Made by a program: the position numbers and the translations under genes. From a virus (Duplodnaviria > Heunggongvirae > Uroviricota > Caudoviricetes), in the IMG/VR virus record IMGVR_UViG_2627854098_000001: DNA of 44,371 nucleotides; one strand, 5' to 3'. Below are positions 15,628 to 41,484 of the stretch, piece after piece (within the stretch, counting starts at the first letter, position 1; each line of letters opens with the position of its first letter). The notes under the pieces were generated by a model. The model did no database searches, was not told the origin of the DNA, and saw only the letters and a program-made list of their open reading frames with translations.

Positions 15628-16380
15628 ATGAACCTTGAAGCCTTACCGAAATATTACTCCCCAAAATCTCCAAAATTGAGCGATGACGCATCGGCGACAG
15701 GCTCGGGTGGTTTAACAATTACGGATGTAATGGCTGCGCAGGGGATGGTGCAGTCGAAAGCACCGCTTGGGTTTGCCTTATTCCTGGCAAAAGTTGGTGT
15801 TCAGGATCCTCAGTTTGCGATTGAAGGCCTGCTCAATTACGCGATGGCACTGGATAACCCGACATTGAACAAATTGAGTGAAGAAACCCGGTTACAGATC
15901 ATCCCTTACCTTGTGAATTTTGCCTTTGCTGATTATTCCAGGTCTGCGGCAAGTAAGGCTCGCTGTGAGCATTGTACTGGTACTGGATTTCATAATGTAT
16001 TGCGCGAAGTGGTGAAACATTCCAGAAGCGGGGAATCCGTTATCAAAGAAGAGTGGGTGAAGGAACTGTGTCAGCATTGTCATGGCAAGGGAGAAGTCAG
16101 CACGGCGTGCAGAGGGTGTAAGGGTAAAGGTATTGTCCTGGATGAAAAAAGAACCCGGCTTCATGGCACGCCTGTTTATAAGACTTGTGGGCGTTGCAAT
16201 GGAAACCGGTTTAGCCGTTTACCGACTACACTGGCACGACGTCATGTCCAGAAGCTGGTTCCAGACCTGACTGATTATCAGTGGTACAAAGGATATGCAG
16301 ACGTAATTGATAAACTAGTAACAAAGTGCTGGCAGGAAGAAGCATATGCTGAAACACAATTGAGAAAGGTGACGAGATAA
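15628..16380 (+). CDS. late-gene antiterminator Q-like protein with four CxxCxGxG zinc-finger repeats
   Basis: ATG 15628 with GGAG RBS; position immediately upstream of a strong promoter, terminator and lysis cassette; family from memory. Confidence 0.65.
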   Translation: MNLEALPKYYSPKSPKLSDDASATGSGGLTITDVMAAQGMVQSKAPLGFALFLAKVGVQDPQFAIEGLLNYAMALDNPTLNKLSEETRLQIIPYLVNFAFADYSRSAASKARCEHCTGTGFHNVLREVVKHSRSGESVIKEEWVKELCQHCHGKGEVSTACRGCKGKGIVLDEKRTRLHGTPVYKTCGRCNGNRFSRLPTTLARRHVQKLVPDLTDYQWYKGYADVIDKLVTKCWQEEAYAETQLRKVTR

Positions 16381-16411
16381 GTGATTTTCGCCGAAGATAG
16401 TGACATGAAGC

Positions 16412-16440
16412 TTGCATTTTTCAAAAAATATGGATAAGAT
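16412..16440 (+). promoter_or_regulatory. late promoter (pR'-like): TTGCAT-17-TAAGAT
   Basis: -35 at 16412-16417, 17-bp spacer, -10 at 16435-16440; downstream of Q, upstream of a terminator. Confidence 0.6.
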
Positions 16441-16486
16441 TTTCTCAACGATGGGCTTTGTATGTCTGCCGTTGATAATTTTCACG

Positions 16487-16510
16487 AACCCGCTGTTGAG
16501 CGGGTTTTTA
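16487..16510 (+). terminator. rho-independent terminator (tR'-like)
   Basis: AACCCGCT-GTTG-AGCGGGTT followed by TTTAT; about 50 nt downstream of the promoter. Confidence 0.7.
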
Positions 16511-16565
16511 TTTACTTGTACTGAAACACATTATATAACCTCATATCAGTTAAAAAGGAGGTTGT

Positions 16566-16901
16566 ATGATTAATGCCGTTGAGTACAGATTACCGTTAGG
16601 AAATATCTCTCCAGAGAATCTTGACGCGTTGTCAGAACTTATCGTTAAGCATTCCGATAAATTTAATAACTATGTACTTAGTTCTATTTCTGATGATGAT
16701 ATTCGATATTCTTACGATTACTACAATTTTGAAATCACAGAGATAGATGAATATGGGTTTCACTTTATAGCACCATATAGCTATTATGAAGGATGCGTTG
16801 ACAATAACTTCTCAGGAGAGGTTGAAGGTTATGCAGAATACGAAATTATTGATAATGAATTAGTCTTCTCTCTTGAGGAACTACCTTGGGATGTAAAATA
16901 A
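16566..16901 (+). CDS. highly acidic Tyr-rich hypothetical protein (111 aa), moron
   Basis: AGGAGG RBS before ATG 16566; about 24 Asp/Glu vs 5 Lys/Arg and 12 Tyr by my count; AT-rich; own terminator. Confidence 0.6.
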   Translation: MINAVEYRLPLGNISPENLDALSELIVKHSDKFNNYVLSSISDDDIRYSYDYYNFEITEIDEYGFHFIAPYSYYEGCVDNNFSGEVEGYAEYEIIDNELVFSLEELPWDVK

Positions 16902-16912
16902 ATATCAATAAT

Positions 16913-16940
16913 AAAGGCCGTAACGAACGGCCTTTATTAT
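16913..16940 (+). terminator. hairpin terminator after the acidic moron
   Basis: AAAGGCCG-TAACGAA-CGGCCTTT followed by ATTATTAT. Confidence 0.55.
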
Positions 16941-16953
16941 TATAAAATCATCA

Positions 16954-17358
16954 ATGCCTGATGAATTAGAATGTAATTTTCGAATTAATAATAAATCAAC
17001 ATATCATTTCACGCTCCGATTTTCTGTCGGAGGCGAAACTGCGGCTATTCATATGCACGAAAAAGAGAATCTTGCCGGAGCGTTCTGGCTTGTTTTGCTG
17101 ATCATCGCAGGTTGGGGGGGGCTTGTCCGTTACCTGATTGATGTGAAGCAGAGTAAAGCAACGTGGAGCTGGATAAATGCCCTCGCTCAGATAGTTGTAT
17201 CAGGATTCACCGGTGTTATTGGTGGCCTAATCAGTATCGAAAGTGGATTCAGTATTTACATGATTCTCGCAACTGCGGGGATTAGTGGTGCGATGGGTTC
17301 GGTTGCACTGACGTACTTCTGGGAACGACTGACAGGGGTGAAAAATGCAAAATCTTAA
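16954..17358 (+). CDS. holin (start uncertain; possibly internal ATG at 17053)
   Basis: Hydrophobic helices (FWLVLLIIAGWGGLV; IVVSGFTGVIGGLI; MILATAGISGAMGSVAL); immediately upstream of and overlapping the endolysin. Confidence 0.65.
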   Translation: MPDELECNFRINNKSTYHFTLRFSVGGETAAIHMHEKENLAGAFWLVLLIIAGWGGLVRYLIDVKQSKATWSWINALAQIVVSGFTGVIGGLISIESGFSIYMILATAGISGAMGSVALTYFWERLTGVKNAKS

Positions 17359-17821
17359 TCCTCAGCGTAAAGCTTTCCTCGATATGGTGGCCTGGTCAGA
17401 AGGAACGGATAATGGGCTACAACCGACACGTAATCATGGTTATGACGTCATTGTGGGCGGAGAAATATTCACTGATTACTCCGATCACCCTCGCAGACTT
17501 GTCACGCTAAACCCAAAACTCAAATCAACGGCTGCCGGGCGCTACCAGCTTCTTTCCCGCTGGTGGGATGCATACCGTAAACAGCTTGGACTGAAAGACT
17601 TCTCTCCAAAAAGCCAGGATGCTGTTGCACTGCAGCAGATTAAAGAGCGTGGTGCTTTACCGATGATTGATCGCGGTGATATTCGTCAGGCTATCGACCG
17701 TTGCAGCAATATCTGGGCTTCACTGCCGGGAGCTGGTTATGGTCAGTTTGAGCATAAGGCTGACAGCCTGATTGCAAAATTCAAAGAAGCCGGCGGAACG
17801 GTCAAAGAGATTCAGGTATGA
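17345..17821 (+). CDS. R: endolysin, lambda R-type lytic transglycosylase
   Basis: Near-identity over most of its length to lambda R as I recall it ([17 protein letters not shown]...[12 protein letters not shown]...). Confidence 0.9.
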
Positions 17822-18255
17822 GCAGAGTAACGGTGATTATATCCGCTCTGGTTATCTGCATCATCGTCTGCTTGTCATGGGCTGTTGATAATTACCGTGA
17901 TGACGCCATCGTCTACAAAGTACAGCGCGATAAAGCCACATCCATCATCGCTGATATGCAGAAGCGTCAACGTAATGTAGCTGAACTCGATGCCAGATAT
18001 ACAAAGGAGCTTGCTGATGCTAATGCGACTATCGAAAGTCTTCGTGCTGATGTTTCTGCTGGGCATAAGCGCCTGCAAGTCGCCGCCACCTGTACAAAGT
18101 CAACGACCGGAGCCAGCGGCATGGGCGATGGAGAAAGCCCTAGACTTACAGCAGATGCTGAACTCCATTATTACCGTCTCCGAAGTGGAATCGACAAGAT
18201 AACCTCACAGGTCAATTACTTGCAGGAGTATATCAGGACGCAATGTCCCAACTAA
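17818..18255 (+). CDS. rz: i-spanin Rz
   Basis: N-terminal TM then coiled-coil; [22 protein letters not shown] like lambda Rz. Confidence 0.85.
18017..18202 (+). CDS. rz1: o-spanin Rz1 (embedded, +1 frame)
   Basis: Lipobox LLGISAC then Pro-rich segment; nested inside rz. Confidence 0.75.
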
Positions 18256-18325
18256 TCACATTTTGAGGATATTTAACGTCTATGCTTTAATGATTTTATT
18301 CATTGTTTTATAATCGCGAAGAATA

Positions 18326-18577
18326 ATGATGAACTTGGCAAAGGATATGATTATGCGTATTAAACCTCAAGATTTTAAGTTTGATGTGTTGACTGTTGCT
18401 GGTTACGCTAACCCTAAAGCTAAAACACATTTCGCACCTTCTGCTTCTGGATTTAATTTTAAATGGGAGTGGGAAGGGAAAATTTATGAGCTTCATATCG
18501 AGCAAGAAAAATTACAGTACCCTGATTTTATTCTTGAACGACTTTTTGATGCCGCAATTGAGATGGCTAAAAAATGA
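18326..18577 (+). CDS. hypothetical small protein (83 aa), AT-rich moron
   Basis: ORF only; no family recognised. Confidence 0.35.
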   Translation: MMNLAKDMIMRIKPQDFKFDVLTVAGYANPKAKTHFAPSASGFNFKWEWEGKIYELHIEQEKLQYPDFILERLFDAAIEMAKK

Positions 18578-18683
18578 CAAAAATCACCGGATGGGGTTTT
18601 TGTTTATAGATATTCACACATAGCCCTTGCATCTAGAACAGAAAATCTTGTCATGGCGCGGGGCTATGTTAGCAAAAATTTAT

Positions 18684-19186
18684 TTAATAGGATATTTTGT
18701 TTGCAGATTTAAGCTCTTTAAGAGTAGCGTCAAGTATATGTAAAAATAGAGAAGTGTCGCCATACTCATAATGTGGCTCGGATTTGTATTCTCTAATATA
18801 AATAAATCCACCTTTGGATAAAAATAAATCAATCAGCTCGTTGTTATTTTCATCGGTTGGGTCAATGGCAGCAAACTTCAATACAGGAGCTTCATCAATG
18901 ACTAGCAGTGTTTCTTTGAAAATAAGTTCTAGTTCATATGTTGAAAGTTTGAGGGTTAACCTATTTTTTTATCTTTATTGAAAATTATTGTGTCGCCAAG
19001 AAAATCGTATTCAGAGCTTGAGTCAATAATGTTATTCTTAAGTTTGAGAGATATTGCATCTAAAGCCTTTTTATGCTCTGCGCACTTAACAACTTTATGA
19101 ACATCTAAACTGGGGATACTCATAATACAACCACCTATGTAAGAACTAAAGAGCATTGAGTCTATGTGATTAATATCAAGACCCAA
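18684..19186 (-). pseudogene. minus-strand AT-rich hypothetical gene split into two ORFs by a frameshift at a T7 run (18964-18970)
   Basis: ORFs 18956-19186 and 18684-18881 would fuse into one ORF of about 155 codons if the run were A8 or A5 on the coding strand. Confidence 0.4.
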
Positions 19187-19225
19187 TTAAATTTTTTAAA
19201 TTATTAGAGTTAGATCCCACTTTAA

Positions 19226-19576
19226 ATGCCCCCACGAACCCCAAAAGCCTGCCGCGTTCGCGGCTGCCGCCAAACCACCACTGATCCGTCAGGCTATTGT
19301 GAAAGCCACAAAAGCGAAGGCTGGAAACAATACAAGCCAGGACAATCCCGTCACCAGCGCGGCTACGGTTCGAAGTGGGATGTTATCCGCGCGCGCGTGC
19401 TGAAGCGTGACAAAGGCCTGTGTCAGTTGTGCCTGCATGTCGGTGTGGTGCGTGAGGCGAAAACCGTTGACCACATCATCCCTAAAGCGCATGGCGGCAC
19501 TGATGCAGACTGCAATCTGCAGAGCCTGTGCTGGCCGTGTCATAAGGCGAAGACGGCCCGTGAACGACTGAAGTGA
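19226..19576 (+). CDS. HNH endonuclease (terminase-associated)
   Basis: HNH motif (VDHIIPKAHGGTDADCNLQSLCWPCH); directly upstream of terminase small subunit. Confidence 0.8.
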   Translation: MPPRTPKACRVRGCRQTTTDPSGYCESHKSEGWKQYKPGQSRHQRGYGSKWDVIRARVLKRDKGLCQLCLHVGVVREAKTVDHIIPKAHGGTDADCNLQSLCWPCHKAKTARERLK

Positions 19577-19602
19577 TAATAATTCTCAACTTTCTGAGGG
19601 GA

Positions 19603-19657
19603 GGGGCGGGTCAAATCCCTGTGACCTGACGTCTTCCGGACTGCCCGCCCCATCGTT
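19603..19657 (+). terminator. long GC hairpin plus T-run (terminator and/or packaging-site region)
   Basis: GGGGCGGG ... CCCGCCCC arms then ATCGTTTTTTT. Confidence 0.4.
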
Positions 19658-19701
19658 TTTTTATACCCGCGAAAAATGAAATTTAACCAGGAGTGCCGCA
19701 T

Positions 19702-36553: not shown

Positions 36554-37297
36554 ATGCATCGTATAGACACGAAAACCGCGCAGAAGGATAAGTTCGGCGC
36601 GGGTAAGAACGGTTTTACCCGTGGTAACCCCCAGACAGGCACGCCTGCCACCGATCTGGATGATGACTACTTTGACATGTTGCAGGAAGAACTCTGCAGC
36701 GTGGTGGAGGCATCCGGTGCCAGTCTGGAGAAGGCGCGGCACGACCAGCTGCTTACCGCGCTTCGTGCGCTGCTGTTAAGCCGCAAGAATCCGTTTAGCG
36801 ATATCAAATCGGACGGCACGGTGAAAACGGCTCTCGAAAACCTTGGTTTGGGAGAAGCGGCAAAACGGAATGTGGGCAACGGGGAAAACCAAATCCCTGA
36901 TATGTCTTTCTGGACGGTTACTGGTAGCAATGGAAATTTTGTGATTCGTCAACCTGACGGGCTAATCATTCAGATGGTTACTGTAAGTATAAGCGGCCCA
37001 GTGGCGATGAATGGAATGACTGATAATGCTTATGCCATCACAGGTTCTAATAAGTCTTATATTGCCACAGCCACATTGCCCTTTGTATTTCCTAATAAGG
37101 TGCTGGGCGTTATCCCTCTGGTATCAACAACAGCTTATGGTGGTGTATCCAGTAATATTACAGGTTCATACGCGACGGCGGTTTGTTCTTTTGCCGCTGT
37201 CAGGGGGAATAATACGATTGTGTTCAAAGTCGACAAACCACTGAATGCAGCCTTTCCTTCAGATACCAGCGTCTCAGCGTTAATCATTGGACGGTAA
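36554..37297 (+). CDS. tail fibre protein: constant N-terminal part plus currently expressed variable C-terminus
   Basis: [22 protein letters not shown]-terminus typical of Mu S / P2 H-type fibres; crossover site inside the ORF. Confidence 0.8.
36831..36856. promoter_or_regulatory. left crossover site for Gin/Pin/Hin-family DNA invertase
   Basis: CTCTCGAAAACC-TT-GGTTTGGGAGAA with AAACC-NN-GGTTT core; inverted copy at 38758-38783; both lie in the same reading frame relative to GGT TTG GGA GAA. Confidence 0.7.
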
Positions 37298-37299
37298 TA

Positions 37300-37743
37300 A
37301 TGAACTCAGTATTCTTTTCACCCGGAAGTAAAAGTTTTTATCTGCAAGAATTGTTTCCAGAATATGAGGATGCGGGAACGCTTCCTGATGATGTTATTGA
37401 AATTACCAGAGAAACATATGAGCAATTTCTTGGTCTGCATCCAGAAGGGAAAGAAATTGGCGCTGACAGTTCAGGACGGCCAGTATGGATTAATTCCCCA
37501 CCCCCTTCAAAAGAGGATGAGGTGTTGACGGCTGAAATGAAAAAAATATCTTTGGTTTCAGAAGTCAATACCTACATCAATACCCATCAGTGGCCTGGCA
37601 AAGCTGCTATTGGTCGTCTGAAAGGCGAGGAACTGGCGCAATATAATTCGTGGCTGGATTATCTGGACGCACTGGAACTGGTCGATACTTCCTGTGCGCC
37701 AGATATTGAATGGCCTACGCCTCCGGCAGTTCAGGCCAGATGA
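37300..37743 (+). CDS. tail fibre assembly protein (Tfa), paired with the expressed fibre
   Basis: Directly downstream of fibre gene; C-terminal DIEWPTPP motif shared with the opposite-strand Tfa. Confidence 0.75.
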   Translation: MNSVFFSPGSKSFYLQELFPEYEDAGTLPDDVIEITRETYEQFLGLHPEGKEIGADSSGRPVWINSPPPSKEDEVLTAEMKKISLVSEVNTYINTHQWPGKAAIGRLKGEELAQYNSWLDYLDALELVDTSCAPDIEWPTPPAVQAR

Positions 37744-38317
37744 CATCCGGCGCTGTGCTGGTATTTGTTGCCGTCACCGCGTCAATGTAATCCAGCACAG
37801 CGTTAAGCCGGGTTGTTTCTGCCTGCATCAGCTTCCGTCCGGCCTGTAATTTCAGCTGAATCAGACCGATGGAAGCCATTGCAGCATCAATCAGTGACTG
37901 ACGCTGTGCTTCTGCCGCGTCTACTGCGGCGCTATGCTGTGCCTCAGTATCGGTCACCCATTTCTCACCATCCCATTTATCGTATGGCGTTAATGGGGCA
38001 ATAGTGGTTGTATTTTCGGGGTAATCACCCGGTGCTGTGATTTGTTTTGATTCTCCCGTTTCGGTGTTATAGACGATTTCACCGCGATGGTCTGGCACAT
38101 ATTCCCATGAATTTAAATTCACAGAACGACAGATAGCATAACCCGCCTTATGTATACCTGGTGCATCCAGACAGGAATATGCCGGGATACCAACACCAAC
38201 GGCAAGATATTCACTTGAAGTGGAAATATATTCCCGAGTTTCACCATCATAGTTATAAACGGTAATATCCCCTGCCTTTGTAGCAACAAGTCCACTATTT
38301 AATATTGCTTTATCCAT
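37715..38317 (-). CDS. alternative tail fibre assembly protein (Tfa'), opposite orientation
   Basis: Convergent with Tfa; C-terminal DVIWPELPE motif; follows the alternative fibre cassette on the minus strand. Confidence 0.75.
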   Translation of the reverse strand: MDKAILNSGLVATKAGDITVYNYDGETREYISTSSEYLAVGVGIPAYSCLDAPGIHKAGYAICRSVNLNSWEYVPDHRGEIVYNTETGESKQITAPGDYPENTTTIAPLTPYDKWDGEKWVTDTEAQHSAAVDAAEAQRQSLIDAAMASIGLIQLKLQAGRKLMQAETTRLNAVLDYIDAVTATNTSTAPDVIWPELPEA

Positions 38318-38770
38318 TATGCTGCTCTCACGATATAGTTAAATGCAATGTTGCGTGGACGGGTATCGACGGGGTTAACGGCCACTGTACCCGACACGGA
38401 CTGGTCATTACCGTTGCTAACGGTAATGTTACTACTGGTTGATCCAATCCCTACTGAATCGGTAAATTTAGCACCTGAGCCGCTCAAAGTTCCCGAGATG
38501 ATAGCTAGCTCCACATAAAAAGTACCTACAGTTGGCTCTTGTGTTGACAGCACCGCACGCCTTGAATCAACGCCGCGCCCATCATCCCAGCCACGAATAA
38601 ACTCACCACGTAAATCAGGCAATTTATTTGTCGGATAAGCCTTTGCCAGTTCCGGGTATTCTTCAGCAGAAAAAGCCGCACCGTTGCATTTCAGCCAGCC
38701 TGTTGGCGGTGTGGCTGAAGGCCATGGAACAGGCACACCAACAGGTAATGCAGAGCCTTCTCCCAAACCA
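38317..38770 (-). other. silent alternative tail-fibre C-terminal cassette (start-less by design; would be expressed after inversion)
   Basis: Phage fibre receptor-binding C-terminus (GWLKCNGAAF...LPDLRGEFIRGWDDGRGVD...NIAFNYIVRA); begins at the right crossover site in frame with the constant part. Confidence 0.7.
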
Positions 38771-38783
38771 ACGTTTATGAAAA
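38758..38783. promoter_or_regulatory. right crossover site for DNA invertase (inverted relative to left site)
   Basis: Minus-strand read TTTTCATAAACG-TT-GGTTTGGGAGAA; shares at least 15 bp with the left site in inverted orientation. Confidence 0.65.
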
Positions 38784-38785: not shown

Positions 38786-38838
38786 GTAACCGGCTCATTT
38801 AAACCGTCTGGTCTGTTTCCTCCGGCTCTACAAAAATA

Positions 38839-39516
38839 ATGTCCATCATTTTTAATGGACACTATCGTATGAAACACCGGACCTGGATCACTGAAGCTTT
38901 ACGTCTTCACTTTGAAGAACATTTACCCCGGGTTGTGGCCGGGCGTCGCCTGGGTGTACCAAAATCAACAGTTTGTAGTATGTTCGTGCGCTTTCGGAGA
39001 GCTGGCCTTTCGTGGCCTTTGCCCGCAGGCATGTCGGAGCAGGAACTTGATGCCTGCCTTTACGGACAATTTTCCACGGTACCAGTCGTACGTCCTGAAA
39101 GCACCGTTATATCCGAAGCCCCCGTGGTAAAAAAACGTCCCCGGCGGCCCAACTTCCCTTATGAGTTTAAAATCGCCTTAGTGGAGCAGTCACTGCAGCC
39201 CGGAGCCTGTGTGGCGCAGATCGCCCGGGAAAACGGAATCAACGATAACCTGCTCTTCAACTGGCGCCATCAATACCGGAAAGGTGGCCTGCTGCCTTCC
39301 GGAAAAAATATGCCGGCACTGCTTCCCGTGACGTTAACGCCGGAGCCGGATAATAAAATCCCGGCCCCCGCACAGGAACCAGAGCAGATAAATACACCGT
39401 CCGACAGTCTGTGTTGTGAGCTGGTTCTGCCGGCCGGAACTCTCAGGCTTAAAGGTAAACTGACGCCGGCGTTATTACAGACACTTATCCGCGAAATAAA
39501 AGGGAGCAGCCACTGA
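38839..39516 (+). CDS. tnpA: IS66 TnpA (orf1)
   Basis: Identical to copy A. Confidence 0.75.
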   Translation: MSIIFNGHYRMKHRTWITEALRLHFEEHLPRVVAGRRLGVPKSTVCSMFVRFRRAGLSWPLPAGMSEQELDACLYGQFSTVPVVRPESTVISEAPVVKKRPRRPNFPYEFKIALVEQSLQPGACVAQIARENGINDNLLFNWRHQYRKGGLLPSGKNMPALLPVTLTPEPDNKIPAPAQEPEQINTPSDSLCCELVLPAGTLRLKGKLTPALLQTLIREIKGSSH

Positions 39517-39863
39517 TGATATCTCTCCCTGCAGGTTCGCGTATCTGGCTGGTTGCAGGTATCACCGATATGCGAAATGGCTTTAACGGCCTGGCATCAA
39601 AAGTTCAGAACGTCCTGAAGGATGACCCGTTCTCCGGACACCTGTTCATCTTCCGCGGACGCCGGGGTGACCAGATAAAAGTGTTGTGGGCTGACAGTGA
39701 CGGACTGTGCCTCTTCACCAAACGCCTGGAGCGGGGCCGCTTCGTCTGGCCAGTCACCCGTGACGGCAAGGTGCACCTTACTCCGGCTCAGTTATCCATG
39801 CTTCTTGAAGGTATCAACTGGAAGCACCCGAAACGAACGGAACGCGCTGGAATCCGCATATAA
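39516..39863 (+). CDS. tnpB: IS66 TnpB
   Basis: ATGA overlap with tnpA; conserved IS66 orf2. Confidence 0.85.
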   Translation: MISLPAGSRIWLVAGITDMRNGFNGLASKVQNVLKDDPFSGHLFIFRGRRGDQIKVLWADSDGLCLFTKRLERGRFVWPVTRDGKVHLTPAQLSMLLEGINWKHPKRTERAGIRI

Positions 39864-39882
39864 CCCGTTGTAAAGTGAGGAT

Positions 39883-41454
39883 ATGGACACCTCACTTGCT
39901 CATGAGAACGCCCGCCTGCGGGCACTGTTGCAGACGCAACAGGACACCATCCGCCAGATGGCTGAATACAACCGCCTGCTCTCACAGCGGGTGGCGGCTT
40001 ATGCTTCCGAAATCAACCGGCTGAAGGCGCTGGTTGCGAAACTGCAACGTATGCAGTTCGGTAAAAGCTCAGAAAAACTTCGTGCAAAAACCGAACGGCA
40101 GATACAGGAAGCACAGGAGCGAATCAGCGCACTTCAGGAAGAAATGGCGGAAACGCTGGGTGAGCAATATGACCCGGTACTGCCATCCGCCCTGCGCCAG
40201 TCTTCAGCCCGTAAACCGTTACCGGCCTCACTTCCCCGTGAAACCCGGGTTATCCGGCCGGAAGAGGAATGCTGTCCTGCCTGTGGTGGTGAACTCAGTT
40301 CTCTGGGATGTGATGTGTCAGAGCAACTGGAGCTTATCAGCAGCGCCTTTAAGGTTATCGAAACACAACGTCCGAAACAGGCCTGTTGCCGGTGCGACCA
40401 TATCGTGCAGGCACCAGTACCTTCAAAACCCATTGCACGCAGTTATGCCGGAGCGGGGCTTCTGGCCCATGTTGTCACCGGGAAATATGCAGACCATCTG
40501 CCGTTATACCGCCAGTCAGAAATATACCGTCGTCAGGGAGTGGAGCTGAGCCGTGCCACACTGGGGCGCTGGACAGGTGCTGTTGCTGAACTGCTGGAGC
40601 CGCTGTATGACGTCCTGCGCCAGTATGTGCTGATGCCCGGTAAAGTCCATGCTGATGATATCCCCGTCCCGGTCCAGGAGCCGGGCAGCGGTAAAACCCG
40701 GACAGCCCGGCTGTGGGTCTACGTCCGTGATGACCGTAACGCCGGTTCACAGATGCCCCCGGCGGTCTGGTTCGCGTACAGTCCGGACCGGAAAGGTATC
40801 CATCCACAAAATCACCTGGCCGGTTACAGCGGTGTGCTTCAGGCCGATGCTTACGGTGGTTACCGGGCGTTATACGAATCCGGCAGAATAACGGAAGCCG
40901 CGTGTATGGCTCATGCCCGGAGAAAAATCCACGATGTGCATGCAAGAGCGCCCACCTACATCACCACGGAAGCCCTGCAGCGTATCGGTGAACTGTATGC
41001 CATCGAGGCAGAGGTCCGGGGCTGTTCAGCAGAACAGCGTCTGGCGGCAAGAAAAGCCAGAGCCGCGCCACTGATGCAGTCACTGTATGACTGGATACAG
41101 CAACAGATGAAAACACTGTCGCGTCACTCAGATACGGCAAAAGCGTTCGCATACCTGCTGAAACAGTGGGATGCACTGAACGTGTACTGCAGTAATGGCT
41201 GGGTGGAAATCGACAACAACATCGCAGAGAACGCCTTACGGGGAGTGGCCGTAGGCCGGAAAAACTGGATGTTCGCGGGTTCCGACAGCGGTGGTGAACA
41301 TGCGGCGGTGTTGTACTCGCTGATCGGCACATGCCGTCTGAACAATGTGGAGCCAGAAAAGTGGCTGCGTTACGTCATTGAACATATCCAGGACTGGCCG
41401 GCAAACCGGGTACGCGATCTGTTGCCCTGGAAAGTTGATCTGAGCTCTCAGTAA
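39883..41454 (+). CDS. tnpC: IS66 transposase TnpC (intact, 523 aa)
   Basis: Full-length ORF with N-terminal coiled-coil/leucine zipper, CxxC zinc-finger and DDE-type region. Confidence 0.9.
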
Positions 41455-41484
41455 ATATCAATACGGTTCTGACGAGTCGCTTAC

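Follow-up and report, generated by a model that had tools for sequence, protein, structure and literature searches.

Accessory units that stand on their own within a phage operon, known as morons, were reportedly defined for phages HK97 and HK022 by Juhala et al. in 2000, and gp15 of HK97 is said to be an example treated by Cumby et al. in 2012. In phage λ, the bor gene is a lysogen-expressed moron located directly downstream of Rz on the opposite strand, and its product, Bor, is a lipoprotein. In this work, we describe an AT-rich island with an interrupted minus-strand gene, located between the Rz gene and the packaging genes of a virus assigned to the Caudoviricetes (IMG/VR record IMGVR_UViG_2627854098_000001). 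The whole stretch of DNA analyzed, 44,371 nucleotides (nt) long, is referred to as the window, and all positions are those of the window unless another locus is named.

A described system with a comparable arrangement is found in phage φ80, whose taiEcA gene is carried on the reverse strand, with Rz/rha on one side and the genome's packaging end on the other (He et al. 2024, PMC11364771). TaiEcA is produced constitutively in the lysogen and blocks the tail assembly of incoming phages, while the adjacent small forward gene, atiEcA, belongs to the Q-dependent late transcript, and its product neutralizes TaiEcA during φ80 lytic growth (PMC11364771).

The island considered here is best explained as a small accessory ("moron") insert at the lysis–packaging junction, a reading that we regard as probable overall on the basis of sequence comparisons. 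It has a deviant GC content, a gene on the opposite strand, a fixed position at the junction, no counterpart in phage SfIV, and hairpins in its homologues, which are attributes of a moron. The two minus-strand open reading frames (ORFs) of the island are, according to the same kind of comparison, one real gene that is read out of frame, as a tract of eight adenines (A8) is recorded as seven (A7).

The Minus-Strand Gene of the Island

The gene and its parts are arranged in the window as follows:

18684 to 19123, minus strand: frameshifted copy of the 146-amino-acid (aa) gene WP_000026993.1, 440 nt here and 441 nt in the intact form

18964 to 18970: homopolymer, T7 on the plus strand and A7 on the coding strand, at codons 52–54; the intact allele has eight

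18956 to 19123, minus strand: N-terminal fragment as translated from the window, 55 aa, ending NKDKKIG before the stop

18684 to 18955, minus strand: C-terminal 90 codons, out of frame with the start

19131 to 19136, minus strand: good Shine–Dalgarno sequence AGGTGG, 7 nt upstream of the ATG at 19123, read from the sequence

An earlier note on this DNA had reported one plus-strand ORF (18326–18577), two minus-strand ORFs with TTG starts (18956–19186 and 18684–18881), and a T7 run at 18964–18970, and all of them were found at these positions. The two minus-strand frames indeed fuse when the run is one T longer or two T shorter, while the removal of a single T does not join them. The fusion itself agrees with that note. 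The start assigned to the intact allele by the Prokaryotic Genome Annotation Pipeline (PGAP) is the ATG at 19123, which gives 146 aa, and not the TTG at 19186, which would yield 167 aa.

The proposal that a single gene is broken at the homopolymer was confirmed in related prophages, where the intact T8 form, WP_000026993.1, was found and differs by one T. After the addition of this base, the gene of the window is identical to WP_000026993.1, full length and colinear. When the window was compared base by base with Escherichia coli ATCC 11775 over 1061 nt, the sole difference was one extra T in the run, and one T is also the single difference from the alleles of MS15052, S88, and DE17. The two adjoining ORFs are accordingly no product of coincidence. 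In genomes with the one-base-longer run, PGAP annotates a single 441-nt minus-strand coding sequence (CDS), WP_000026993.1; the last 65 codons (18684–18881) are sometimes called by PGAP as WP_014639503.1. The intact protein is already present in RefSeq as a hypothetical protein, and a literature search on this accession found no paper.

Family, Selection, and Predicted Structure

Homologues of the intact protein are few. An indexed search returned four clusters, an exhaustive hidden Markov model search over 1.84 billion representatives gave only six hits, and a profile search yielded 16 clusters (at 90% identity), which are 28–100% identical and all labelled hypothetical. The named clusters come from E. 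coli, Salmonella, Citrobacter koseri, Atlantibacter hermannii, and Lelliottia, and a tblastn search against the phage collection gave no match. Judging from these matches, this is a tiny family restricted to prophages of Enterobacteriaceae. The ratio of nonsynonymous to synonymous substitution rates (dN/dS) between its divergent members is 0.18–0.33, and by this measure the family is under purifying selection.

At every locus examined, the gene is oriented opposite to the late operon and lies between the lysis cassette and the genes for the HNH endonuclease and the small and large terminase subunits (TerS and TerL). The same placement is found in E. coli, Lelliottia, and Atlantibacter prophages that have different holins and endolysins. 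The GC content of the homologues is 0.30–0.35 throughout, compared with 0.42–0.55 for the surrounding locus. In three of the homologous loci (L006, L008, and L011), a hairpin directly follows the stop codon, and it is accompanied by a T-rich tail in L008 and L011 only; L011, the Atlantibacter hermannii locus, also has a TATAAT sequence 32 nt before the ATG.

Extra cargo was observed in the same lysis–packaging gap of the Lelliottia amnigena prophage (L008, 5125–7924), including an IraP-like anti-adaptor gene (according to precomputed annotation) and a gene for a 485-aa protein with a sub-threshold match to family 2 glycosyltransferases (GT2). This extra cargo confirms that the lysis–packaging gap is a variable cargo hot-spot. 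The neighboring cargo in the Lelliottia, Atlantibacter, and metagenomic loci gave no defence match in PADLOC.

The intact protein of 146 aa has a mass of 16.7 kDa and an isoelectric point of 5.4. No signal peptide or hydrophobic segment was found in it, the maximum 19-residue Kyte–Doolittle mean being 1.1 (residues 67–85), and it is predicted to be an acidic, soluble α/β protein. The AlphaFold2 model built from a 13-sequence alignment (predicted local distance difference test score, pLDDT, 84.9; predicted template modelling score, pTM, 0.77) comprises a long N-terminal helix (8–37), another, short helix, an antiparallel sheet of seven strands, and a C-terminal helix (126–140). It replaced a model from three sequences, which was unusable (pLDDT 39.5). 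When this fold was compared with viral models in Foldseek, one significant match was obtained, the 151-aa protein A0A873WDE3 of the P2-like Burkholderia phage Mana (E 1.4e-5, TM score 0.71, 150 aligned columns).

Several weaker candidates were considered and rejected. The queries for the family models were the intact protein, the product of the plus-strand ORF, and 13 members of the family; YueH reached 21 bits against a cutoff of 27, DUF1062 reached 17 bits against 23, and PDC-M24A of PADLOC-DB v2 was matched at E 0.01–0.016 over 30 residues by three of the 13 family members. The best matches of the structure in the Protein Data Bank (PDB) were AriA/PARIS chains (E 0.09, TM 0.2), which are insignificant, and the best E-value of a sequence profile search of the PDB was 0.96.

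It could be argued that there is no gene at all and that the ORFs are frames left open by chance in an AT-rich spacer, an idea compatible with the lack of a database family and the weakness of the flanking promoter signals. Full-length homologues at 28–62% identity, however, show the dN/dS values given above, the position of the gene is conserved across genera, and the predicted fold is confident. The homologues, the dN/dS, and the predicted fold have already effectively refuted this explanation, to which we assign hardly any probability.

The Island and Its Flanks

The island and the genes on both sides of it are located as follows:

18256 to 19225, no strand: AT-rich accessory island, with GC 0.33 against 0.52 for the whole window; SfIV homology resumes at 19226

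17818 to 18255, plus strand: Rz-type lysis protein (i-spanin), left flank, annotated by PGAP as "lysis protein" WP_000092331.1

17990 to 18202: Rz1-like ORF embedded in the Rz gene

19226 to 19576, plus strand: HNH endonuclease, right flank and first gene of the packaging block, PGAP WP_001135216.1, with 90% identity to SfIV gp54

The host element is an e14/SfIV-like prophage with an HK97-type head and a contractile tail, which resides in E. coli of the sequence type 95 (ST95) complex. In its packaging block, the HNH gene is followed by the gene for a P27-family TerS and then by that for TerL. The AT-rich character of the stretch between Rz and the HNH/terminase block, and the identity of the flanking genes, were as the earlier note had described them: the GC content of 18256–19220 is 0.33, whereas that of the window is 0.52. 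At a finer scale, the values are 0.31–0.37 across approximately 18150–19200, 0.46–0.50 in the upstream lysis genes, and 0.56–0.58 in the downstream packaging genes. The suggestion of cargo on the opposite strand of an AT-rich island is likewise supported.

Phage SfIV, which is otherwise colinear, is devoid of the island, and its homology to the window returns exactly at the start codon of the HNH gene (19226); in a blastn comparison, the only aligned segments were 17354–17757 and 19226–19634. A megablast search of 5,426 complete E. coli genomes found the island in about 100 genomes of the ST95 type of extraintestinal pathogenic and avian pathogenic E. coli (ExPEC/APEC). A repeat and inverted-repeat scan detected neither insertion boundaries nor att-like repeats in the island, only short matches at chance level, and the Rfam scan of 17800–19700 gave no match.

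The Plus-Strand ORF and Candidate Regulatory Signals

Besides the minus-strand gene, the island contains a small gene on the other strand and several candidate signals:

18353 to 18577, plus strand: small ORF WP_001220676.1, 74 aa, PGAP start ATG at 18353, in the direction of the late operon

18309 to 18314, plus strand: perfect TATAAT, a candidate −10 box upstream of the plus-strand ORF

18576 to 18604, plus strand: terminator-like hairpin with a U-rich tail directly after the stop of the plus-strand ORF, −10.8 kcal/mol, z −3.4

18618 to 18669, both strands: long-stem hairpin between the convergent genes, −21.7 kcal/mol and z −3.7 on the plus strand, −19.4 kcal/mol and z −2.3 on the minus strand

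19172 to 19200, minus strand: weak promoter candidate resembling sigma-70 sites (TTAAAA and GATATT, separated by a spacer of 16 nt), located 48 nt upstream of the ATG, from a relaxed scan

The plus-strand ORF is thus present where the earlier note had placed it, although its annotated start is the ATG at 18353 instead of 18326. Its product is an ORFan with only eight matching protein clusters. It occurs with 90% identity in the homologous locus L007 and is absent in L006, L008, and L011. Among the alleles of the minus-strand gene, it is found together with the closest one only. The hairpin on the 3′ side of the minus-strand gene is non-canonical as a terminator in the window, and a stricter consensus scan for promoters and terminators showed no excess over shuffled sequence.

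In strain APEC O1 (L014), a G-to-A change at the position corresponding to 18472 of the window converts TGG to TGA in the plus-strand ORF (W40 to stop). The same strain carries T7 in the minus-strand gene, so that both genes of the island are off in it.

Tract Length in Other Genomes

The length of the run was determined with a 66-nt probe across it in 102 complete E. coli genomes that have the locus. T7 was present in 43 of the 102, including UTI89, NU14, IHE3034, APEC O1, and several FDAARGOS strains, and the one-base-longer form in the remaining 59, with T8 seen in all nine that were inspected. In a collection of 15 billion proteins, the truncated 55-aa product (P0029) occurs on 871 contigs and the intact protein on at least 1000.

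An alignment of 15 genomes over 30 kb served to define backgrounds of single-nucleotide polymorphisms (SNPs), and T7 was found on at least three to four backgrounds on which T8 genomes occur as well. IMT5155 falls together with C1 and BEN2908 on the basis of 12934C, 27080C, and 27772C; APEC O1 groups with ATCC 11775, S88, and MS7163 via 9043C; and GN06489 groups with SF-166 via four shared SNPs. The genomes with the consensus background (UM146, E12053, N61, 2022E04-002, and MS20655) all have T7. According to this alignment, the state of the tract has changed more than once, even if the assemblies obtained by 454 sequencing are discounted.

Variation was also found in a sister allele with 93% identity (P0027, 166 contigs), for which an A7 form (P0026, 10 contigs), an A9 form ending with DKKK before the stop (P0008, three contigs), and an in-frame A5 form shortened by three bases (P0002) occur. 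Lesions are not limited to the tract: P0003 has a frameshift near residue 98, and in ZJ3920 the left part of the locus is replaced by the insertion sequence (IS) IS1. An identical partial match suggests the same IS1 replacement in E18006.

The 30-kb prophage core of the window contains 14 runs of at least 7 nt. The only 8-mers that the other genomes show in their consensus are the T8 run of the island and a G8 run in the holin gene, and these two are the only runs that vary in more than one assembly:

17114 to 17121: G8 run of the holin gene, with one additional base in UM146 and one missing base in MS7163, where the gene is annotated as "frameshifted"

Since only the two 8-mers vary in more than one assembly, the pattern is what plain slippage dependent on run length, or miscalling, would be expected to produce. 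At the tract site, most homologues encode DIENRL, DAENRL, or HNDEC and are without a run. The Atlantibacter hermannii homologue (34% identity) has an A8 tract of its own (L011, 8142–8149), located 12 nt upstream of the E. coli position, and both tracts lie within the same lysine-rich loop. The tract at codons 52–54 of 146, with its length polymorphism among close relatives, is best read from these comparisons as a genuine slippage hot-spot, at which length-dependent replication slippage occurs in a dispensable gene, and not as a programmed switch.

The earlier note had listed a phase-variable gene among its explanations. In its strongest form, this would make the A-tract a contingency locus, which turns the gene on and off, to the lysogen's advantage, through programmed slipped-strand mispairing at high frequency. 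Such a role would agree with the location of the tract within the first third of the ORF, with on and off lengths that are both common (59 and 43 complete genomes), with the homoplasy of the tract state across SNP backgrounds, with the occurrence of A7, A8, and A9 in the second allele, and with the separate A8 tract of the Atlantibacter homologue 12 nt away. On the other hand, the tract is only 8 nt long and is not conserved while its flanks diverge, most family members being without a run. The G8 run of the holin gene varies likewise, and no 7-nt run varies in more than one assembly. All four UTI89 records show T7, but these may be the same sequence, and the lesions outside the tract (the P0003 frameshift and the IS1 insertion) point to ordinary loss. 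The idea of a programmed switch was not upheld by these data, and we consider a contingency locus very unlikely.

Origin of the Seven-Base Run in This Record

The window shares 100% identity with the APEC IMT5155 genome (NZ_CP005930.1) across 29,930 nt and is best explained as this strain's copy of the prophage. The 454 chemistry is known to miscount homopolymers. The nearest relatives of IMT5155 are marked by a SNP in the capsid gene (24228), which is present in only three of 1046 matching genomes and identifies DE17 and VTB96815v; both carry the intact T8 gene. An IS66-family insertion in the integrase gene is also common to IMT5155 and DE17. The IMT5155 assembly was obtained from 454 GS Junior/FLX Titanium reads alone at approximately 23-fold coverage, with Sanger sequencing used for gaps only (PMC4232414).

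Over 34,250 aligned bases, IMT5155 and DE17 differ by one substitution and five single-base insertions or deletions (indels):

2618, 4250, 5615, 13240, and 18963: single-base indels, IMT5155 versus DE17

The indels at 4250, 5615, and 13240 were not found in 13 other ST95 genomes compared. PGAP flags the integrase and LexA-family genes of IMT5155 as frameshifted, and the transposase ORF of the first IS66 copy is split in the IMT5155 record. All five indels are likely to be 454 homopolymer or indel errors, and the 5:1 ratio of indels to substitutions against DE17 is the reason to prefer sequencing error over divergence. The 454-only assembly, the T8 run in both sister genomes, and this ratio together make an assembly miscall the most likely cause of T7 in the present record. 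We consider such a miscall probable, albeit with reserve, from the sequence data; one result that weighs against it is that, of the four other indels private to IMT5155, three are insertions of one base, whereas the tract indel is a deletion of one. If T7 is a miscall, the gene of IMT5155 would be intact.

Of the explanations offered in the earlier note, the assembly homopolymer error is therefore the best fit for this record, while a real slip applies to many other ST95 genomes and ranks second for IMT5155. In the latter case, a replication slip would have inactivated the gene in IMT5155, leaving a pseudogene in a decaying prophage. There is no question that the same allele lacking one base exists in many other genomes, changes of the tract recur on different backgrounds, and the IMT5155 prophage is already degraded, its integrase gene being split by the IS66-family element (as in DE17). 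These points are countered by the T8 runs of DE17 and VTB96815v and by the five indels against one substitution over 34 kb, which are typical of 454 error and not of evolution. We therefore view a genuine T7 in IMT5155 as possible but rather unlikely. With a miscall as the preferred cause, the record is a warning of how a homopolymer can shift the frame in a reference genome built from 454 reads only, and it matters little as found.

Other Features of the Prophage

Two inverted 2.7-kb copies of an ISCro1-like IS66-family element, 99.9% identical, are located at 1273–3970 and 38786–41484, and the ORFs in the element encode 225, 115, and 523 aa. It is the first copy that splits the prophage integrase gene, with the same insertion in DE17, while APEC O1 and ATCC 11775 are without both copies. 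A tail-fibre/tail-fibre-assembly segment at approximately 36838–38776 has the opposite orientation in ATCC 11775 when compared with the window and APEC O1, and it adjoins a truncated recombinase gene; the segment looks like an invertible host-range switch of the Pin/Gin type. A second AT-rich patch (GC 0.31–0.37) extends over approximately 16350–17000, between the Q antiterminator and holin genes, and includes the hypothetical gene WP_000606308.1 (approximately 16566–16901).

Possible Role of the Minus-Strand Gene

The minus-strand gene seems to form a transcription unit of its own that runs antisense to the Q-dependent late operon. With its own antisense transcription, the protein would probably be made in the lysogen, as are the products of λ bor and φ80 taiEcA. 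By analogy with these systems, and given that the gene is real, we consider a lysogen-expressed accessory protein quite likely. The single most likely role, a tentative suggestion that is itself unlikely to hold, would be in anti-phage activity or superinfection exclusion. The small plus-strand ORF could act as a partner expressed late.

Several results weigh against an accessory insert of this kind. Searches of Pfam, PHROG, NCBIfam, and PADLOC gave nothing above threshold, and the comparison of the fused translation with protein-family and defence databases, which the earlier note had proposed, likewise produced no match above threshold. Foldseek detected no fold match in the PDB, and no convincing promoter was found upstream of the minus-strand gene in the window. 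The plus-strand ORF does not accompany the distant homologues of the minus-strand gene, and the idea of a two-gene system is thereby weakened. The accessory insert nevertheless remains our preferred explanation of the island.

A bolder proposal combines several of these elements. The 146-aa protein might found a new prophage family with an anti-phage role (or another benefit for the lysogen) and an unsolved fold; together with the plus-strand ORF, it might form a Tai/Ati-like "non-contiguous operon" of unrelated proteins, and the recurrent frameshifts in the A-tract might be on/off events under selection, which would relieve autoimmunity or cost and would not be neutral decay. We regard this combination as improbable.

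The locus is of interest because experiments on φ80 Tai have validated the junction after the lysis genes and before the packaging genes of lambdoid and HK97-like prophages as a site of lysogen-expressed defence genes, and the family described here is small, conserved, structurally unmatched, and present at this validated defence junction in several enterobacterial genera. The gene is common in ExPEC/APEC of ST95 in both on and off states, which provides natural knock-outs together with intact alleles. Should the family prove to be a defence gene whose on and off alleles segregate in ST95, the upside would be modest.

Comparison with Known Systems

The arrangement of the island resembles that of φ80 taiEcA/atiEcA in several respects. 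Both are located at the hot-spot after Rz and before the packaging genes, in both the larger gene lies on the reverse strand and interrupts the late operon, and in both a small ORF (approximately 75 aa) is found alongside in the direction of the late operon. The proteins themselves differ: hhalign of the family with TaiEcA gave a probability of 0.1 and no sequence relationship, and BLASTP of the plus-strand ORF with AtiEcA gave no alignment. The minus-strand protein has 146 aa, compared with 204 aa for TaiEcA, and the small ORF is placed upstream of the reverse gene, whereas that of φ80 is downstream. In addition, the small ORF of the island is not conserved with the distant homologues.

The λ bor gene shares with the minus-strand gene its position and orientation relative to the lysis cassette, and it is likewise a single small gene. 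Unlike Bor, the 146-aa protein has neither a signal peptide with a lipobox nor a hydrophobic N-terminus; the two are set apart on these properties and not by sequence comparison.

Similarly to the morons of HK97 and HK022, the island is an extra insert resembling a transcription unit between the genes of an operon, has a deviant base composition, and is present or absent among relatives. Several homologues are followed by a hairpin that may serve as a terminator of their own, and in the window the promoter is represented by a weak candidate only.

The protein of Burkholderia phage Mana, A0A873WDE3, is similar in predicted fold (TM 0.71) and is itself uncharacterized. It is probably CPT_Mana_015, an assignment based on protein length (151 aa) alone: Mana has a single CDS of 151 aa in its genome, an additional gene placed between the tail-completion genes and gpV and followed by an annotated terminator. 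The Mana protein differs in sequence (14% identity, with no relationship in hhalign), and its gene shares the orientation of the late genes. The gene family described here is best regarded as a new, uncharacterized example of the morons found at the lysis–packaging hot-spot.

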